Shown piece by piece: positions 49,846-58,786 of a stretch of 64,000 nt of DNA. Below the pieces are notes generated by a model. That model was not told the origin of the DNA, did not search any database, and saw only the letters and a program-made list of their open reading frames with translations. The stretch lies in the IMG/VR virus record IMGVR_UViG_2648501839_000008. One strand, 5' to 3'. The position numbers and the translations under genes were made by a program. The stretch comes from a virus (taxonomy: Duplodnaviria > Heunggongvirae > Uroviricota > Caudoviricetes). How positions within the stretch are numbered: the stretch's first letter is position 1; every line of letters starts with the position of its first letter.

Positions 49846-51879
49846 TTACTTAACCTGGTGGCCAGGTTTAGCACCAGCATCCGGGCTTAACAGGAAGATA
49901 TCTTTCCCGCCGGGGCCAGCAGCCATCACCATACCTTCGGAGATGCCGAAGCGCATCTTACGCGGAGCCAGGTTAGCCACCATAATGGTGTGACGACCAA
50001 TCAGTGCCTGTGGGTCTGGATAAGCAGAACGGATGCCTGAGAAGACATTGCGTTTTTCACCGCCGAGATCCAGCGTCAGGCGCAGCAGTTTGTCAGAACC
50101 TTCAACAAACTCTGCGTTTTCGATCAGTGCCACGCGCAGGTCAACTTTGGCAAAGTCGTCAAAGGTGATGGTTTCCTGAATCGGGTCGTCTGCCAGCGGG
50201 CCAGTAACTGGCGCGGCAGTAGCTTTCACTTCTTCTTTAGACGCTTCCACCAATGCTTCCACCTGTTTCATGTCGATACGGTTATACAGTGCTTTGAACG
50301 GATTCACTTTATGGCCCAGCAGCGGTTGCTGGATGCCATCCCAGGTCAGTTCCGTATTCAGGAATGCTTCCGCACGTTCTGTCAGTTTCGGCAGTACCGG
50401 TTTCAGGTAAGTCATCAGCACGCGGAACAGGTTGATGCCCATTGAGCAAATCGCCTGCAGGTCAGCATCGCGACCTTCCTGTTTTGCGACTACCCAAGGA
50501 GCCTGCTCGTCGACATAGCGGTTAGCCAGGTCAGCCAGTGCCATGATTTCACGGATAGCTTTACCAAATTCGCGGCTTTCCCACGCTTCACCAATCACTT
50601 CAGCGGCATCAGTGAAGGTTTTGTACAACTGCGGGTCAGCCAGCTCGCTTGCCAGCACACCGTCAAAACGCTTATTGATAAAGCCAGCGTTACGGGACGC
50701 CAGGTTAACCACTTTGTTCACGATATCGGCATTCACACGCTGAACGAAATCCTCCAGGTTGAGATCGATATCATCAATGCGCGAAGAGAGTTTCGCAGTG
50801 TAGTAGTAACGCAGGCTGTCAGCGTCAAAATGATTCAACCAGGTGCTGGCTTTAATAAAGGTGCCGCGAGACTTGGACATCTTCGCGCCGTTCACCGTCA
50901 CATAGCCGTGAACAAACAGGTTGGTCGGCTTGCGGAAGTTGCTGCCTTCCAGCATGGCAGGCCAGAACAGGCTGTGGAAGTAAACGATATCTTTACCGAT
51001 GAAGTGGTACAGCTCGGCGGTGGAGTCTTTCTTCCAGTATTCATCGAAGCTGGTAGTGTCGCCGCGCTTGTCGCACAGATTCTTGAAGGAACCCATGTAG
51101 CCAATCGGTGCGTCCAGCCAGACGTAGAAATATTTACCCGGCGCGTTCGGAATTTCAAAACCGAAGTAAGGTGCGTCGCGGGAGATATCCCACTGTTGCA
51201 GACCAGATTCAAACCACTCCTGCATTTTGTTTGCCACCTGCTCCTGCAACGCACCGCTGCGGGTCCATGCCTGCAACATTTCGCTGAAAGAGGGCAGATC
51301 AAAGAAGAAGTGTTCAGAATCACGCATTACCGGGGTAGCACCAGAAACCACCGATTTCGGCTCGATCAGTTCAGTCGGGCTGTAGGTCGCGCCGCAAACT
51401 TCACAGTTATCGCCGTATTGATCTGGCGCTTTACATTTCGGGCAGGTGCCTTTCACAAAACGATCCGGCAGGAACATGCCTTTTTCCGGGTCGTACAACT
51501 GAGAGATAGTGCGATTTTTAATAAAACCGTTCTCTTTCAGGCGAGTATAGATAAGCTCAGACAACTGACGGTTCTCTTCGCTGTGCGTCGAGTGATAGTT
51601 GTCATAGCTGATGTTAAAGCCTGCGAAATCAGTCTGGTGTTCCTGACTCATTTCGCCAATCATCTGCTCCGGTGTGATACCAAGTTGCTGTGCTTTCAGC
51701 ATGATCGGCGTACCGTGGGCATCGTCGGCACAGATGAAATTAACCTCGTGGCCGCGCATTCGCTGGTAACGAACCCAGACATCAGCCTGGATGTGCTCCA
51801 GCATATGGCCGAGGTGGATTGAGCCGTTAGCGTACGGCAGCGCGCACGTCACCAGAATTTTCTTCGCGACTTGGGTCAT
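49846..51879 (-). CDS. metG: Methionyl-tRNA synthetase
   Basis: 677-aa translation from [26 protein letters not shown] (HIGH-type motif) through KMSKS to the C-terminal tRNA-binding domain; enterobacterial MetRS; true ATG at 51877-51879 (track ORF extended upstream). Confidence 0.95.
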
Positions 51880-52036
51880 AGTAGGCATTACTTCTTTGTA
51901 GTGAAAAGGGGCTTGATAGTAACAAAATGGCCTTATGTCTGCCATGTGATAACAGCATTTCTCATAAATGATTAAATGTCGCAGCTGGAGTACACTACAA
52001 GGCGACAATTGCGCAAATTAAAATAAAGGAGACGGG

Positions 52037-53137
52037 ATGAGCGAGTCCAAATCGCCGGATGCCCTGAGAGCAATGGTAGCCGGTACGCTGGCTAATTTTC
52101 AGCACCCAACCCTGAAACACAACCTGACTACGCTTAAAGCGTTACACCATGTTGCGTTGATGGATGACACACTGCATGTCGAACTAATCATGCCTTTCGT
52201 GTGGAATAAGCCTTTTGAAGACCTGAAAGAGCAATGTAGTGGTGATCTGCTCCGTATCACTGGCGCAAAGGCTATTGACTGGAAGCTGTCGTACAACATT
52301 GCCACGCTTAAGCGCGTCAAAAACCAACCAGGCATTAATGGTGTTAAGAATATTATCGCCGTAAGCTCAGGCAAGGGCGGTGTAGGCAAATCGTCCACAG
52401 CAGTAAACTTGGCACTGGCTTTGGCTGCTGAAGGTGCGAAAGTTGGTATTTTGGATGCCGATATCTATGGTCCATCAATTCCAACCATGCTGGGCGCGGA
52501 AAACCAACGTCCAACCTCACCTGACGGTACTCACATGGCACCTATCATGTCTCATGGCCTGGCAACCAACTCTATTGGTTATCTGGTCACCGACGACAAT
52601 GCAATGGTGTGGCGTGGACCGATGGCCAGCAAGGCGCTGATGCAGATGTTGCAGGAAACTCTATGGCCTGATCTGGACTATCTCGTTCTCGATATGCCGC
52701 CGGGCACTGGTGATATTCAGTTGACGCTGGCGCAGAACATTCCTGTAACTGGTGCGGTTGTGGTAACTACGCCGCAAGACATCGCGCTGATCGATGCGAA
52801 GAAAGGCATTGTGATGTTCGAAAAAGTCGAAGTGCCGGTACTAGGTATCGTCGAAAACATGAGTGTGCATATTTGCAGTAACTGCGGTCATCACGAGCCA
52901 ATTTTTGGCACCGGTGGCGCACAGAAACTGGCCGAGAAATACAACACGCAGTTGTTAGGCCAAATGCCACTTCATATCTCTCTTCGTGAAGATCTGGATA
53001 ACGGAACACCAACCGTTATTAGTCGTCCAGATAGCGAATTTACGGCTATTTATCGTGACCTCGCAGATCGCGTTGCTGCCCAAATGTATTGGCAAGGTGA
53101 AGTAATACCTGGCGAAATCGCATTCCGCGCAGTGTGA
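52037..53137 (+). CDS. apbC: Fe-S cluster carrier ATPase ApbC/Mrp
   Basis: Deviant Walker A SGKGGVGKSS, CxxC motif ...HICSNCGHH..., divergent from metG as in enterobacterial chromosomes; RBS AAGGAG. Confidence 0.9.
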   Translation: MSESKSPDALRAMVAGTLANFQHPTLKHNLTTLKALHHVALMDDTLHVELIMPFVWNKPFEDLKEQCSGDLLRITGAKAIDWKLSYNIATLKRVKNQPGINGVKNIIAVSSGKGGVGKSSTAVNLALALAAEGAKVGILDADIYGPSIPTMLGAENQRPTSPDGTHMAPIMSHGLATNSIGYLVTDDNAMVWRGPMASKALMQMLQETLWPDLDYLVLDMPPGTGDIQLTLAQNIPVTGAVVVTTPQDIALIDAKKGIVMFEKVEVPVLGIVENMSVHICSNCGHHEPIFGTGGAQKLAEKYNTQLLGQMPLHISLREDLDNGTPTVISRPDSEFTAIYRDLADRVAAQMYWQGEVIPGEIAFRAV

Positions 53138-53174: not shown

Positions 53175-53564
53175 CTACATCACAGGACAATCATCAAACT
53201 CGCCACTTCTTGCGTCGTTGATAATGTGAGTGATCACACCAAACACGGCATTGCTGCCCGTGCATCCATCATCATCCTTTGGCAATGCTTCCTTCTTACC
53301 AGTTCTTAAATCCTCCAGATGCTGACGTGGATACTTCCGGTATCTTTTTACGCGATATTCCCCATCCAGAGCACATACAAGAAGAGATCCATCAACAGGA
53401 GTCAGTGAGGAATCGACCACCAGCAATGCACCCTGCAATATTCCCTCACGATGATGACTATCAGCCGCCCTCATGAAGTAGGTCGCTGAAGGATGTCTAA
53501 TTATCTGCTGATCAAGAGAAATACGGCTCTCAGCATAATCCGCCGCAGGAGAAGGGAAGCCCAT
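53175..53564 (-). CDS. UmuD-like (LexA/S24 peptidase family) protein
   Basis: C-terminal domain aligns with the UmuD/LexA catalytic core (Ser in ...AADSHH..., Lys in ...RVKRYRK...); SOS box immediately upstream. Confidence 0.65.
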   Translation of the reverse strand: MGFPSPAADYAESRISLDQQIIRHPSATYFMRAADSHHREGILQGALLVVDSSLTPVDGSLLVCALDGEYRVKRYRKYPRQHLEDLRTGKKEALPKDDDGCTGSNAVFGVITHIINDARSGEFDDCPVM

Positions 53565-55032: not shown

Positions 55033-55682
55033 TCGTCATCCTCATCCGAGTCATCCTCATCACAGGATGAGAGTAGTGGGTTAGTCATTCGCCCTACTTG
55101 AGTGGCGTAGCCACGCCGACAGAGATTGCGCAGCACACTGTATATTTCGAACATCTCGGTTCGTTCATCGCCAACATCAAGCTCAGATGCTATAGCGTGG
55201 CATTCAGTCGCGAGAGCCGATATTTTCTGAAATAACTCTGCATTATTCACTGTTCGACTCCTGCGGCGTTCTGGTAGTGGCATCCAGTGTGTGACATTGC
55301 TAATCAGACCATATTCATTAGTTTGAGGATGGTTGCCGTTATCGTCTCCGTATTTAAGACTCTCCATAAAGCCATAATGCCTATTACCATTAACGCTCAC
55401 AAAGCCGTAATAAGCAGGTATAACGCCGATCTCACACGTAACCAGTAAAGGAAAACTAGTTCTCCAATTTAGCTCGCCAATTACAGGCATTCGCTCACTA
55501 CAGCTTATCCAACCATCCTTAGATGCGGCTGTATTGGCATAGGCCTTACGGTGCTTCTGTAGCTCTGCTGCAATCGCTCTCACGACTTCAACTGGTGCCC
55601 TTGCAGCAAACTCAATGTTGGTGATCAGCTCATTAAGATATTTCTCGCTTGGGTAGCATTTCTTATTGTTAACGGTGGTCAT
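55029..55682 (-). CDS. Hypothetical prophage protein (DUF551-like WMPLPE motif, acidic C-terminal tail)
   Basis: ORF track; motif recognition only. Confidence 0.4.
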   Translation of the reverse strand: MTTVNNKKCYPSEKYLNELITNIEFAARAPVEVVRAIAAELQKHRKAYANTAASKDGWISCSERMPVIGELNWRTSFPLLVTCEIGVIPAYYGFVSVNGNRHYGFMESLKYGDDNGNHPQTNEYGLISNVTHWMPLPERRRSRTVNNAELFQKISALATECHAIASELDVGDERTEMFEIYSVLRNLCRRGYATQVGRMTNPLLSSCDEDDSDEDDE

Positions 55683-55867
55683 TAGGCAGCTCTCTCAACA
55701 ACAAGCAATTCGTCGTAGTCATAATCAGTTTCGGAACCATCCGTACCGAACAGAGTCACTTTGTCATTTTCCATCCAAAAAGATTTAACCGCACATTGTT
55801 GACCTTTAGATGTTATGAGCACATCACCAGGGATTACGTCTTCAGCGCGAACCTCTAGTGTTCTCAT
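55682..55867 (-). CDS. Small hypothetical protein (61 aa)
   Basis: ORF track; coupled overlaps on both sides. Confidence 0.3.
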
Positions 55868-56745
55868 CGTGCTGCCCCCTCTTTGGTGAAAATACCTGCT
55901 GCAATGCTGTTTATGATGCTGTCAGTGCATGGAGTAGAAAGCTGGGCATCTCCAGCAATTTTCATGACCTCAACATCCGCATATCGAATACCGAGGTGTA
56001 TCAGACCGGCTATACCTGACTTAAGTCGAACATTTTCCATAAACAGATCTTTTTCCCGCTGTTTAGCGGCTTCCAACTCCATCGACAATTTTTCCAACTG
56101 CTCTTTATGCTTCTTGTATTCCTGATACGCGTGCCAAGACTGACCTTTGCGCACACTATCAGTGATATCAGCAACCTGCTCTGGTGTTAGCGTGGTCAGT
56201 GGCTGTGATGGAAAAATCATCACTTGCCCGGCATCCCAATCAAAACCCGCCTTAATTGACTGAACCTCAACTGATGGTGTTGAACCGATGCGACCAGGCG
56301 AATGAACAACGATCGTTACATCCATATCGCGACGATGGCTGTGGTTGTTGGACAAAATACGATTCACCAACTCAGAAAATTTGGATAATTTCATGCTGAT
56401 CCCTCTTTCTCTCCCCGGATAATTCTGTTGCACACATCCACACTCGTCGCAGATGAAAACGGCGTCCCCAGCAATTAACTTTTTGACGGCGTACTGGGAT
56501 TTGTTGCAGAAGCTGCAACAAAGTGTTCGCCTGACTGATAAGGATGGAGCGCCAGATGTCAGCCGCTCCATATCGTTCTTGCGACGCAATATCACACGGC
56601 TGAACTCAACCAGTTTCTCCGGGGATATCTCCTCCTCCGTAGCGAGCGTCTCTAGTCGTTCGAGTATGTTGAAGGCTTTTTCTTGGTAATAGCAGAGTGC
56701 GATGTGGTCATTTTCTTTCACCTTCAATGTTCGTGGCGCTGGCAA
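55864..56745 (-). CDS. Protein with ClpX-type C4 zinc ribbon
   Basis: ...[29 protein letters not shown]... resembles the ClpX N-terminal zinc-binding domain. Confidence 0.4.
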
Positions 56746-57109
56746 GATTGTCCTTGCGAAGAAGAGCGGCTATGCGCTTACTTCCATCCGAGATAACGCC
56801 CTCGTAATACTCACGCTGCTCGTTGAGTTTTGATTTTGCCAACTCCAGTTGTTTTGTTAGTTCCGCAATACGGCAAACATCGTTGATACGCGTTTCCTCT
56901 AATGCGTTGATCTCATCCAGTAGTGCCAGCACGGTTTCTGGTCCGGCCAGAAATTTGAAGGCGTTGAGGGCATCAATATCAACACCGCTATCTTTAAGTT
57001 CCTGTTCGCTTATCAGATCATCATCAACTGGCAACATTAACAGGCGTTCCATTGCCGGAATTGCACGCTCTGCCGCCTCACGCAGTGCCTGATAGTCAAT
57101 CTTGCTCAC
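56708..57109 (-). CDS. Hypothetical coiled-coil protein (133 aa)
   Basis: ORF track. Confidence 0.35.
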
Positions 57110-57606: not shown

Positions 57607-58160
57607 TACGATGCCTCTAACTTATCTAACTCTTTCAGCCCTTCACGTACCGCGTTCACAATGCGTTCCAGATACTGGTATTTCGGGTTTGGTACCGTTG
57701 GCCAGTCGGCATACCACGGATCATCACCAAAGAGATTCAGCAGTTTGTTACCGACGCCGAAACAACAGCAGCTTTCTTTTACGTCATCGGCGTTTTCCGC
57801 CTCGTCCCACATTTCACGAGCCAGTACGGCGTCGATTTCTCTCTCTCTTCGTAACTTTATGATTTCTGACTTCACGAAAAGCAGATTTGCATCGTTGTCA
57901 TCGTCGACCGTGCTTCGCAGTTGAGAGTCGAAATAGCCGATTAGATACTCGTTGCTGACCCGCTTAATGAACGTCTGCACATCATCACCGCCCATAGCAA
58001 ACCAAGCCGCAGTCCACGCTTTTCCGTAGCAGATGATGGTGATTCTTCCCTTACCAGGTTCGTAGTTTTCAATCATTACTCGAACCGGATCGAGGCGTTC
58101 CAGATCCGTCAGCACAAAGGAAAGAACATCTATTTTTTCGACCTTCATGCAGCCTCCCAC
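57606..58160 (-). CDS. Hypothetical protein (184 aa)
   Basis: ORF track. Confidence 0.35.
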   Translation of the reverse strand: MGGCMKVEKIDVLSFVLTDLERLDPVRVMIENYEPGKGRITIICYGKAWTAAWFAMGGDDVQTFIKRVSNEYLIGYFDSQLRSTVDDDNDANLLFVKSEIIKLRREREIDAVLAREMWDEAENADDVKESCCCFGVGNKLLNLFGDDPWYADWPTVPNPKYQYLERIVNAVREGLKELDKLEAS

Positions 58161-58786
58161 GCGCTCCAGATCAGCGATTTGTGTTTTTCATAACGTTTGA
58201 TGTGTACCGGTTTCAGAAGCGCAATACCTTCAGTGACTTTCGCCATTGCGCTTAATAGCAACGGGTGTTCTATTCCTATCCTCTCCATGTACTCGACAAC
58301 ATCAGCGTTGGCACCAATCTCTTTGCCGTGAAAGAGTACGTCCAGCATCAGTTCTTTCTCTGCGAGGTAGACAGCTGAAAACTCGGGATCGCGACTCACG
58401 ATAGAAGAGGTATTGTCGAGCAGGTCAGCCAGCTTGATCATGCGCGTCTGCATGTCGAGATTTTGCTCCAGCTCCAGGACATTGATGATGAAACGCTGTA
58501 TTCGATTGCCGTCTTCTGGCCTTGCAATGTTGGTCAGAGCCTGAACCATTTCAGCTACGCGCTCACCGAAGTGATCACGAACCATCTCTATGGTTACATG
58601 GGTGTCTTCGACCACATCATGCAGAAGCGCCGCGATTTGCATCTCCACGGTTCCGTCATGCAATGCAACAATCTCTCGGACAGCAACCGGGTGGTTGATG
58701 TAGTCTTCGCCGGTATATTTTCTTTTCTGACCAACGCCACCATGAGCGCCAGCGGCGAACATATGAGCTTCGGAAATACTAGACAT
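58145..58786 (-). CDS. HD-domain hydrolase, SpoT/RelA-hydrolase-like (small alarmone hydrolase candidate)
   Basis: ...HPVAVREIVALHDGTVEMQIAALLHDVVEDT... matches the HD motif arrangement of (p)ppGpp hydrolase domains. Confidence 0.55.
   Translation of the reverse strand: MSSISEAHMFAAGAHGGVGQKRKYTGEDYINHPVAVREIVALHDGTVEMQIAALLHDVVEDTHVTIEMVRDHFGERVAEMVQALTNIARPEDGNRIQRFIINVLELEQNLDMQTRMIKLADLLDNTSSIVSRDPEFSAVYLAEKELMLDVLFHGKEIGANADVVEYMERIGIEHPLLLSAMAKVTEGIALLKPVHIKRYEKHKSLIWSAWEAA

Follow-up and report, generated by a model that had tools for sequence, protein, structure and literature searches.

The 64,000-nucleotide stretch of viral DNA analysed here (the window) carries on its minus strand a 293-codon open reading frame (ORF) that contains a zinc ribbon of the kind found at the N-terminus of ClpX, and raises the question of whether a novel multidomain protein is encoded at this locus, and of what a virus might gain from a copy of this domain. 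The zinc-finger motif of ClpX type is genuine, and its match lies far beyond what chance would produce. [quoted passage not shown] All four zinc-ligand cysteines are kept (C77, C80, C99 and C102). Searches of the ORF gave no AAA+ Pfam match, whilst the NCBIfam ClpX models TIGR00382 and NF003745 scored 39-42 bits against cut-offs of 359-371, with residues 62-104 alone being matched. The preliminary description of this locus, which had reported both a resemblance to the ClpX N-terminal C4 zinc-binding domain and the absence of an AAA+ module, was correct in these respects.

Its further statement that the domain closely mirrors that of ClpX held for the four ligands and the beta-hairpins, but not for the C-terminal end. 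Positions 2-29 of the 39 in PF06689 were covered by the window ORF, compared with 2-38 of 39 in an intact relative, and the corresponding scores were 40.8 bits for the window ORF, 57.5 bits for the intact relative and 76.3 bits for the E. coli ClpX N-terminus. The helix that follows the second CxxC, to which the domain owes its hydrophobic core and dimer interface, is replaced in the window by a frameshift peptide, leaving positions 30-39 of the profile unmatched, and the final two residues of the motif as it had been quoted (ending in CDECGC) are themselves a product of the frameshift; the native protein reads differently at this point and then stops. The features of the locus are as follows.

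55864..56745, minus strand: the 293-codon ORF, a mechanical ORF call with a TTG start, in which upstream sequence read out of frame is followed by the ZBD gene body, a linker in a shifted frame and the 176-aa gene.
56708..57109, minus strand: Ead/Ea22-like gene encoding 133 aa (Pfam PF13935, 81 bits), whose TGA and the native ATG of the ZBD gene overlap as ATGA.
56652..56711, minus strand: remnant of the native reading frame, with its ATG at 56711-56709, 19 codons, then a TAG at 56654-56652.
56685-56686, minus strand: 1-bp deletion, CCC to CC on the coding strand, nine codons past the family ATG.
56557..56685, minus strand: N-terminal helical-hairpin module, ORF residues 21-63, defined by alignment and AlphaFold2 helices.
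56440..56532, minus strand: truncated ClpX-type ZBD, ORF residues 72-102, with C77, C80, C99, C102 and the beta-hairpins kept and the C-terminal helix gone.
About 56439-56444, minus strand: 2-bp deletion, by which a GT repeat changes from GAGTGTGTGG to GAGTGTGG, immediately behind the fourth cysteine codon.
56395..56439, minus strand: frameshifted remnant of the region coding for the ZBD helix, reading an altered peptide where relatives read the helix and then a stop.
55864..56394, minus strand: downstream 176-aa gene, with its own Shine-Dalgarno sequence (AAGAGGG, 56401-56407) and ATG (56394-56392).
55682..55867, minus strand: the next gene, encoding 61 aa, with an ATGA overlap with the 176-aa gene.

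Megablast searches found the region to be 97-99.4% identical in pECOH89/SSU5-type phage-plasmids of approximately 110 kb from E. coli, Shigella and E. albertii as well as in the phages CMS-2020a and PhiR41_1, and the query was 3 nt shorter than every full-length match. The plasmid pAVS0225-A is 99.1% identical to the window over 27.5 kb, and the locus itself is 99.4% identical over 882/885 nt to both pAVS0225-A and pECOH89, in which the neighbouring genes are the same. These alignments place the window within an E. coli phage-plasmid of the SSU5/pECOH89 kind. In RefSeq the locus is split into two genes, for a 107-aa protein (WP_053882148) and a 176-aa hypothetical protein, which are joined by an ATGA stop/start overlap. 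The window locus is orthologous to WP_053882148, a member of PHROG 6797, in that the DNA and the flanking genes (Ead/Ea22-like on one side and the 176-aa gene on the other) are the same, yet it bears two frameshifts and yields no 107-aa product.

Both deletions were seen against every close relative, and the alignment with PhiR41_1 and D6 also displayed the native stop/start overlap. Beyond the 2-bp deletion the frame runs on into the start of the downstream 176-aa gene (MKLSKF...). The 1-bp deletion is the reason why the native ATG, which overlaps the TGA of the Ead/Ea22-like gene, now opens only 19 codons, and the long ORF exists because an in-frame TTG (56745) within that upstream gene happens to precede the shifted body. 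The TTG is present in intact relatives as well, which ruled it out as a compensatory mutation. The 293-aa ORF is almost certainly a frameshift chimera with the anatomy listed above, and the earlier view of a zinc ribbon embedded in a 293-aa protein must be abandoned, since two frameshifts gave rise to the ORF and the 176 attached residues belong to a separate, unrelated gene.

The product of the 176-aa gene is identical to WP_024269804 of pAVS0225-A, and this gene should stay expressible from its own ribosome-binding site. The protein belongs to phrog_6026/368, with more than 2,400 homologue clusters that form mosaics with Ead/Ea22, DUF551 and other modules, and an AlphaFold2 model of low confidence (pLDDT 56.5) shows a small beta domain together with a long helix, of coiled-coil type, at residues 71-149. 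In other strains, the 176-aa and 61-aa genes are themselves joined by a frameshift into a fusion (P0124) found on 38 contigs. The recurrence of such fusions between neighbours shows that chimeras of this kind are a normal by-product of the tightly overlapping genes in the Ea22-region block. The position of the ZBD gene in this block is compatible with early or accessory expression.

The deleted alleles are rare. Across 5,426 complete E. coli genomes, a 40-nt probe over either deletion junction had no match, whilst an undeleted control probe matched 62 genomes. Within IMG/VR, the intact junction was present on 15 contigs and the 2-bp-deleted junction on two, and no deleted junction was found among metagenome contigs. 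One IMG/VR contig (L006) is the window bar one substitution and contains both deletions; another (L005) differs from the window at nine positions and contains the 2-bp deletion in the absence of the 1-bp deletion, such that its product from the native ATG is a 282-aa fusion. This 282-aa fusion occurs on 8 contigs, with NCBI entries CTT15493.1 and CTZ67108.1 under the name ‘ClpX’, compared with 900 contigs that carry the exact intact 107-aa sequence. The long products of the window from any plausible start codon were absent from a set of 15 billion proteins. A total of 76 IMG/VR loci encode the N-terminal module of the family, 73 of them intact, two fused and one cut by a contig end; a single ORF of 102-128 aa comprising N-module, ZBD and helix was therefore present at 73 of the 75 complete loci.

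The most economical history, reconstructed from these sequences, is a stepwise decay in one rare lineage. Slippage in the GT repeat deleted 2 bp after the fourth zinc cysteine, abolishing the helix and fusing the frame to the downstream gene. The intermediate was the ATG-initiated 282-aa fusion, as found in L005 and the 8 public contigs, and a subsequent 1-bp deletion severed the gene body from its own ATG, giving the state seen in the window and L006. This order of events is indicated by L005, which has the 2-bp deletion alone.

It is improbable that either deletion, or both, arose by error during the sequencing or assembly of a genome that in reality has two intact genes. Both indels do fall within repeats of a few bases (CCC and GTGTGT), where errors typically arise, and the 1-bp deletion is confined to the window and the near-identical L006; but repeats of three and six bases are short for systematic errors, and the 2-bp deletion recurs in independent records, namely L005 with its nine differences and CTT15493.1 and CTZ67108.1 on 8 contigs. 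Relative to pAVS0225-A, the gap list for positions 52-64 kb of the window holds these two indels and no others, which shows that the assembly is not noisy in general, the 12 kb of coding sequence being otherwise free of indels. General sequencing noise was ruled out by this count of two indels in 12 kb against a 99%-identical plasmid, together with the independent records of the 2-bp deletion. The 1-bp deletion taken by itself could be a base-calling error, as the window and L006 are perhaps the same or sister assemblies; the real allele would then be the 282-aa fusion, in which the helix is likewise missing. It is scarcely credible that the 1-bp deletion is instead bypassed by -1 ribosomal frameshifting at AAG AAA AAG, a tandem-lysine run resembling that of dnaX. 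AAA AAG is slippery in E. coli, and in the ATG frame (ACC AAG AAA AAG CCT) a -1 slip would return ribosomes to the family frame. The heptamer G AAA AAG is nonetheless imperfect when compared with X XXY YYZ, no upstream stimulator resembling a Shine-Dalgarno sequence is present, and the 77 nt downstream fold no better than shuffled sequence (z=0.08). Moreover, the slippery run was born of a random deletion, and the bypass product would retain the 2-bp deletion that destroys the helix. A programmed -1 frameshift site was accordingly ruled out on the grounds of the imperfect heptamer and the lack of a stimulatory downstream structure (z=0.08).

What remains of the domain in the window is unlikely to fold or dimerise normally, since the ClpX ZBD dimer is formed by the C-terminal helices and beta-hairpins, according to the account in PMC5890618 (which cites Donaldson 2003 and Park 2007). 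With the dimerisation helix gone and the native translation start lost, the window allele is quite likely non-functional as a ZBD protein, that is, an inactivated allele. Some translation of the chimera from the TTG, which has a weak Shine-Dalgarno sequence (AAGGA) five nucleotides upstream, is possible, and a partially folded zinc knuckle formed by the four surviving ligands is conceivable. One could go further and regard the chimera as an expressed neo-protein, a functional innovation whose downstream coiled coil takes over from the dimerisation helix that was lost; this we consider very improbable. The 293 open codons behind AAGGA and TTG, the persistence of the ATG-initiated 282-aa version on 8 public contigs and the recurrence of neighbour-gene fusions in a region of module shuffling (P0124, on 38 contigs) are in its favour. 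Conversely, the second deletion kills the native start of the very fusion made by the first, a sign of decay and not of refinement; the TTG pre-exists in intact relatives and was therefore not selected; the deleted alleles are very rare; and the downstream partners of the ZBD gene are unrelated in three phage backbones, with no conserved pairing. It was also on account of the unrelated downstream neighbours in D6 and P88 that the fusion was ruled out as a ‘Rosetta stone’ sign of partnership between the ZBD protein and the 176-aa protein. The explanation that we consider likely overall is that the ORF is a frameshift chimera, that the window carries an inactivated allele, and that the intact family to which it belongs may serve as a mimic of the ClpX N-domain.

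This intact family is PHROG 6797, for which RefSeq uses the name ‘ClpX C4-type zinc finger protein’ (WP_053882148), whilst older records misname its members as ‘carboxylate--amine ligase’, for instance D6 orf93 and P88 gp19. Its members are encoded by one ORF of approximately 102-128 aa that runs from its own ATG to its own stop, an arrangement the window copy lacks. Across the 25 homologue clusters, which come from Escherichia and Salmonella, the proteins align over their full length. Their four zinc cysteines, on whose conservation in homologues the preliminary description had staked its reading, are invariant in these 25 clusters and at 73 IMG/VR loci, and many invariant positions are also found across the clusters in the N-terminal 55 residues.

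An AlphaFold2 model of the intact protein, built on the alignment of the 25 clusters (mean pLDDT 73), has helices at residues 10-26 and 31-52; a flexible linker of low confidence then leads to a ZBD made up of two short hairpins and a helix at residues 89-105. When this model was utilized in Foldseek searches, the only structures retrieved were those of the E. coli ClpX ZBD (2DS5/6/8), at 1.1-1.2 A over 38 residues with 74% identity; the ZBD part alone was matched, and the hairpin part was unmatched. In BLASTP comparisons, 28/41 residues (68%) of the intact ZBD were identical to E. coli ClpX residues 11-51, with 83% positives. The family is, to judge by these comparisons, clearly derived from ClpX. 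It shares with the E. coli ClpX ZBD the C4 treble-clef zinc ribbon, the four ligands and the core of beta-hairpin and helix, the window copy having lost the C-terminal dimerisation helix through its frameshift, and it differs from ClpX in having neither an AAA+ module nor a linker to one, and in possessing an N-terminal helical hairpin of its own instead. Outside the family this N-module was not encountered: an exhaustive phmmer search over 1.84 billion representatives returned 7 proteins, all of which were family members or truncated versions of them, and a scan of genome contigs with the N-module gave no confirmed locus.

The gene is carried by three unrelated temperate backbones, these being the SSU5-like phage-plasmids, the P1-like phage D6 and P2-like phages such as P88. 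In P88-type phages its place is at the end of the early operon, behind the genes for the replication endonuclease and ParM/partition. The downstream neighbours differ across the SSU5-like, D6 and P88 backbones and are non-homologous to one another, which argues that the ZBD gene is an autonomous module. Comparison with P88 gave a dN/dS of 0.22-0.26 (dS approximately 1.5-1.9), indicating purifying selection on the family. The ZBDs of divergent members are 76% identical to that of E. coli ClpX, compared with 59-68% to the pAVS-type ZBD and 61% to each other, whilst the N-modules share 43-60%. This star-like similarity to ClpX fits selection to stay ClpX-like but is not decisive, as plain divergence from a ClpX-derived ancestor, with ClpX itself remaining near-constant, would equally be expected to produce it. 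None of the defence models of PADLOC-DB matched the ZBD protein or nine neighbouring proteins, and our search of the literature on characterised stand-alone or phage-encoded ClpX-type zinc fingers found no publication on this family.

In ClpX, the N-domain is the docking site for adaptors and for auxiliary tags on substrates, whilst ssrA substrates do not require it (PMC12383707). [quoted passage not shown] By analogy, the intact 107-aa protein, as a free and probably dimeric ZBD, would mimic the N-domain of host ClpX and bind its ligands, which include the tails of the adaptors SspB and RssB, UmuD, and lambda O-like or MuA-like substrates that depend on the N-domain. These ligands would be titrated off ClpXP in a decoy or anti-adaptor action, and the family-specific helical hairpin would confer target specificity or oligomerisation. 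A decoy is the simplest reading, as a near-copy of the ClpX N-domain would compete for the same ligands, and it is a serious possibility for the intact family, though one to which we do not commit. The proposal that the protein serves as a ClpXP adaptor, decoy or inhibitor, originally made for the 293-aa ORF, therefore survives as a reasonable hypothesis for the intact 107-aa family, for which the inhibition by free ZBD (PMC7226468) is a precedent, and is unlikely for the damaged copy in the window. In its full form, the proposal would make this family the first virus-encoded mimic of the ClpX N-domain, a host ZBD captured and fused to a hairpin by enterobacterial temperate phages and phage-plasmids and titrating adaptors or N-domain-dependent substrates; the sequence comparisons allow us to advance this only tentatively.

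The main alternative to a decoy is that the intact protein is a degradation adaptor, whose ZBD either heterodimerises with the ClpX N-domain or docks on ClpX-bound adaptors whilst the hairpin delivers a phage or host protein to ClpXP. The retention of the family-specific N-module at 40-80% identity, in a design that combines cargo binding with docking as in adaptors, is in keeping with such a role, as is the ZBD being a dimerisation domain (PMC5890618, PMC7226468). On the other hand, the ZBDs of ClpX are tethered at high local concentration as stable homodimers, so that there is no obvious reason for them to exchange with a free ZBD, and neither a candidate cargo nor a conserved neighbouring gene was found across the three backbones. 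We regard the adaptor role as unlikely.

Several known systems resemble the intact family in part. Small proteins that block a host ATP-dependent protease pathway by way of its adaptor, its substrate or the protease itself include IraM/IraP, T4 PinA, T7 Gp4.5, lambda CIII and RexB, several of which are phage-encoded. IraD is likewise an anti-adaptor (PMC7226468). The protease-blocking activity of these anti-adaptors and phage protease inhibitors is hypothetical in the ZBD family; none of them copies a domain of the protease itself, and there is no kinship of sequence or fold. The clearest precedent for a decoy comes from mycobacteria, whose ClpC2 is homologous to the N-terminal domain of ClpC1 but stands alone, and binds what the full-length ATPase would otherwise bind (PMC10030653). 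Like the phage family, it is the free, ligand-binding N-domain of a Clp unfoldase, but the unfoldase is a different one (ClpC), the fold is different, the protein is bacterial and not viral, and it sequesters an antibiotic instead of adaptors or substrates, such that the two resemble each other in function alone. Besides the ClpX ZBD, the Bacillus subtilis anti-sigma factor CsfB (Gin) has the sole dimeric treble-clef zinc finger known (PMC5890618). It too is a small stand-alone regulator, yet its identity to the ClpX ZBD is approximately 20% and its interface is patterned differently; it binds sigma factors and is probably not homologous.

For annotators and those who scan viral genomes, the 293-aa ORF is a matter of correction, as it should not be taken for a new multidomain protein; the 282-aa fusion already appears in one public record under the name ‘ClpX’. 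The window copy is a decaying member of a small and already catalogued phage gene family, one that is approximately 70% identical to the adaptor-docking domain of host ClpX, is under purifying selection and resides in the accessory regions of three unrelated temperate backbones. If the mimic reading is true, replication initiators, antitoxins or a UmuD'-like protein encoded nearby would be stabilised, and the rare frameshift alleles would provide natural loss-of-function variants for comparison. Should the family indeed block or redirect N-domain-dependent proteolysis by ClpXP, it would represent a new ‘domain-mimic’ class of phage control over host proteases, and would make available a selective, genetically encoded means of inhibiting adaptor-dependent ClpXP activity.

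The ATGA junctions of the Ea22-like cassette block were found to be a repeated site of frameshift fusions. One such product, P0124, is a 237-aa protein containing ...[13 protein letters not shown]..., in which the 176-aa gene and the 61-aa gene that follows it are joined by a frameshift; it was present on 38 public contigs (window equivalent 55682..56394, minus strand). The Ead/Ea22-like gene upstream of the ClpX-type zinc-binding domain (ZBD) gene (56708..57109, minus strand) is intact in the window, encoding 133 aa, and the annotation of the otherwise intact plasmid pAVS0225-A marks its counterpart (L004:19694-19984) as a pseudogene truncated at the C-terminus. Decay of the Ea22-like block strikes different genes in different lineages. 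In the subfamily resembling the P2-like phage P88, the representatives P0256, P0258 and P0259 also carried a truncation or frameshift inside or ahead of the ZBD, indicating that this domain has been lost more than once.

Many NCBI records, along with orf93 of phage D6 (L002:3033-3353) and gp19 of P88 (L023:5004-5336), name the ZBD family 'carboxylate--amine ligase'; as proteins of the family lack a ligase domain, this widespread wrong name has apparently been passed on from one annotation to the next in error. A misnomer was also seen for one 282-aa fusion of the ZBD gene with the 176-aa gene, recorded as 'ATP-dependent protease ATP-binding subunit ClpX'. ClpX-type zinc ribbons were also identified in unrelated phages, namely Caulobacter phage Cr30 (81449-81649), phage G (gp258) and the jumbo phages Atu_ph07 and Phosso, some as small stand-alone proteins (Cr30) and others within full phage-encoded ClpX homologues. 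Stand-alone ZBD proteins of 65-190 aa are numerous in metagenomes.

Two further genes of the window encode proteins with recognizable domains:

53175..53564, minus strand, S24 peptidase of 129 aa, N-terminus MGFPSPAADY...
58145..58786, minus strand, HD_4 domain protein of 213 aa, domain score 63 bits

HD_4 is a (p)ppGpp hydrolase domain of the RelA/SpoT type, and this phage-plasmid protein may be a small alarmone hydrolase. Host-like housekeeping genes, comprising apbC/mrp, metG, nrdA, nrdB, thymidylate synthase, dfrA51 and rnhA, are also carried (window ~49846..53137 and pAVS0225-A annotation), a metabolic cargo unusually rich for a temperate element.

The N-terminus of the S24 peptidase gives it the appearance of a pre-cleaved UmuD', resembling HumD of P1, and a distance of 2.3 kb separates its gene from that of the ZBD protein. 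ClpXP acts on UmuD/UmuD' as a substrate in a manner that depends on the ClpX N-domain. Were the intact ZBD family to act as a decoy, titrating adaptors or substrates from ClpXP, this UmuD'-like peptidase would be a candidate client.
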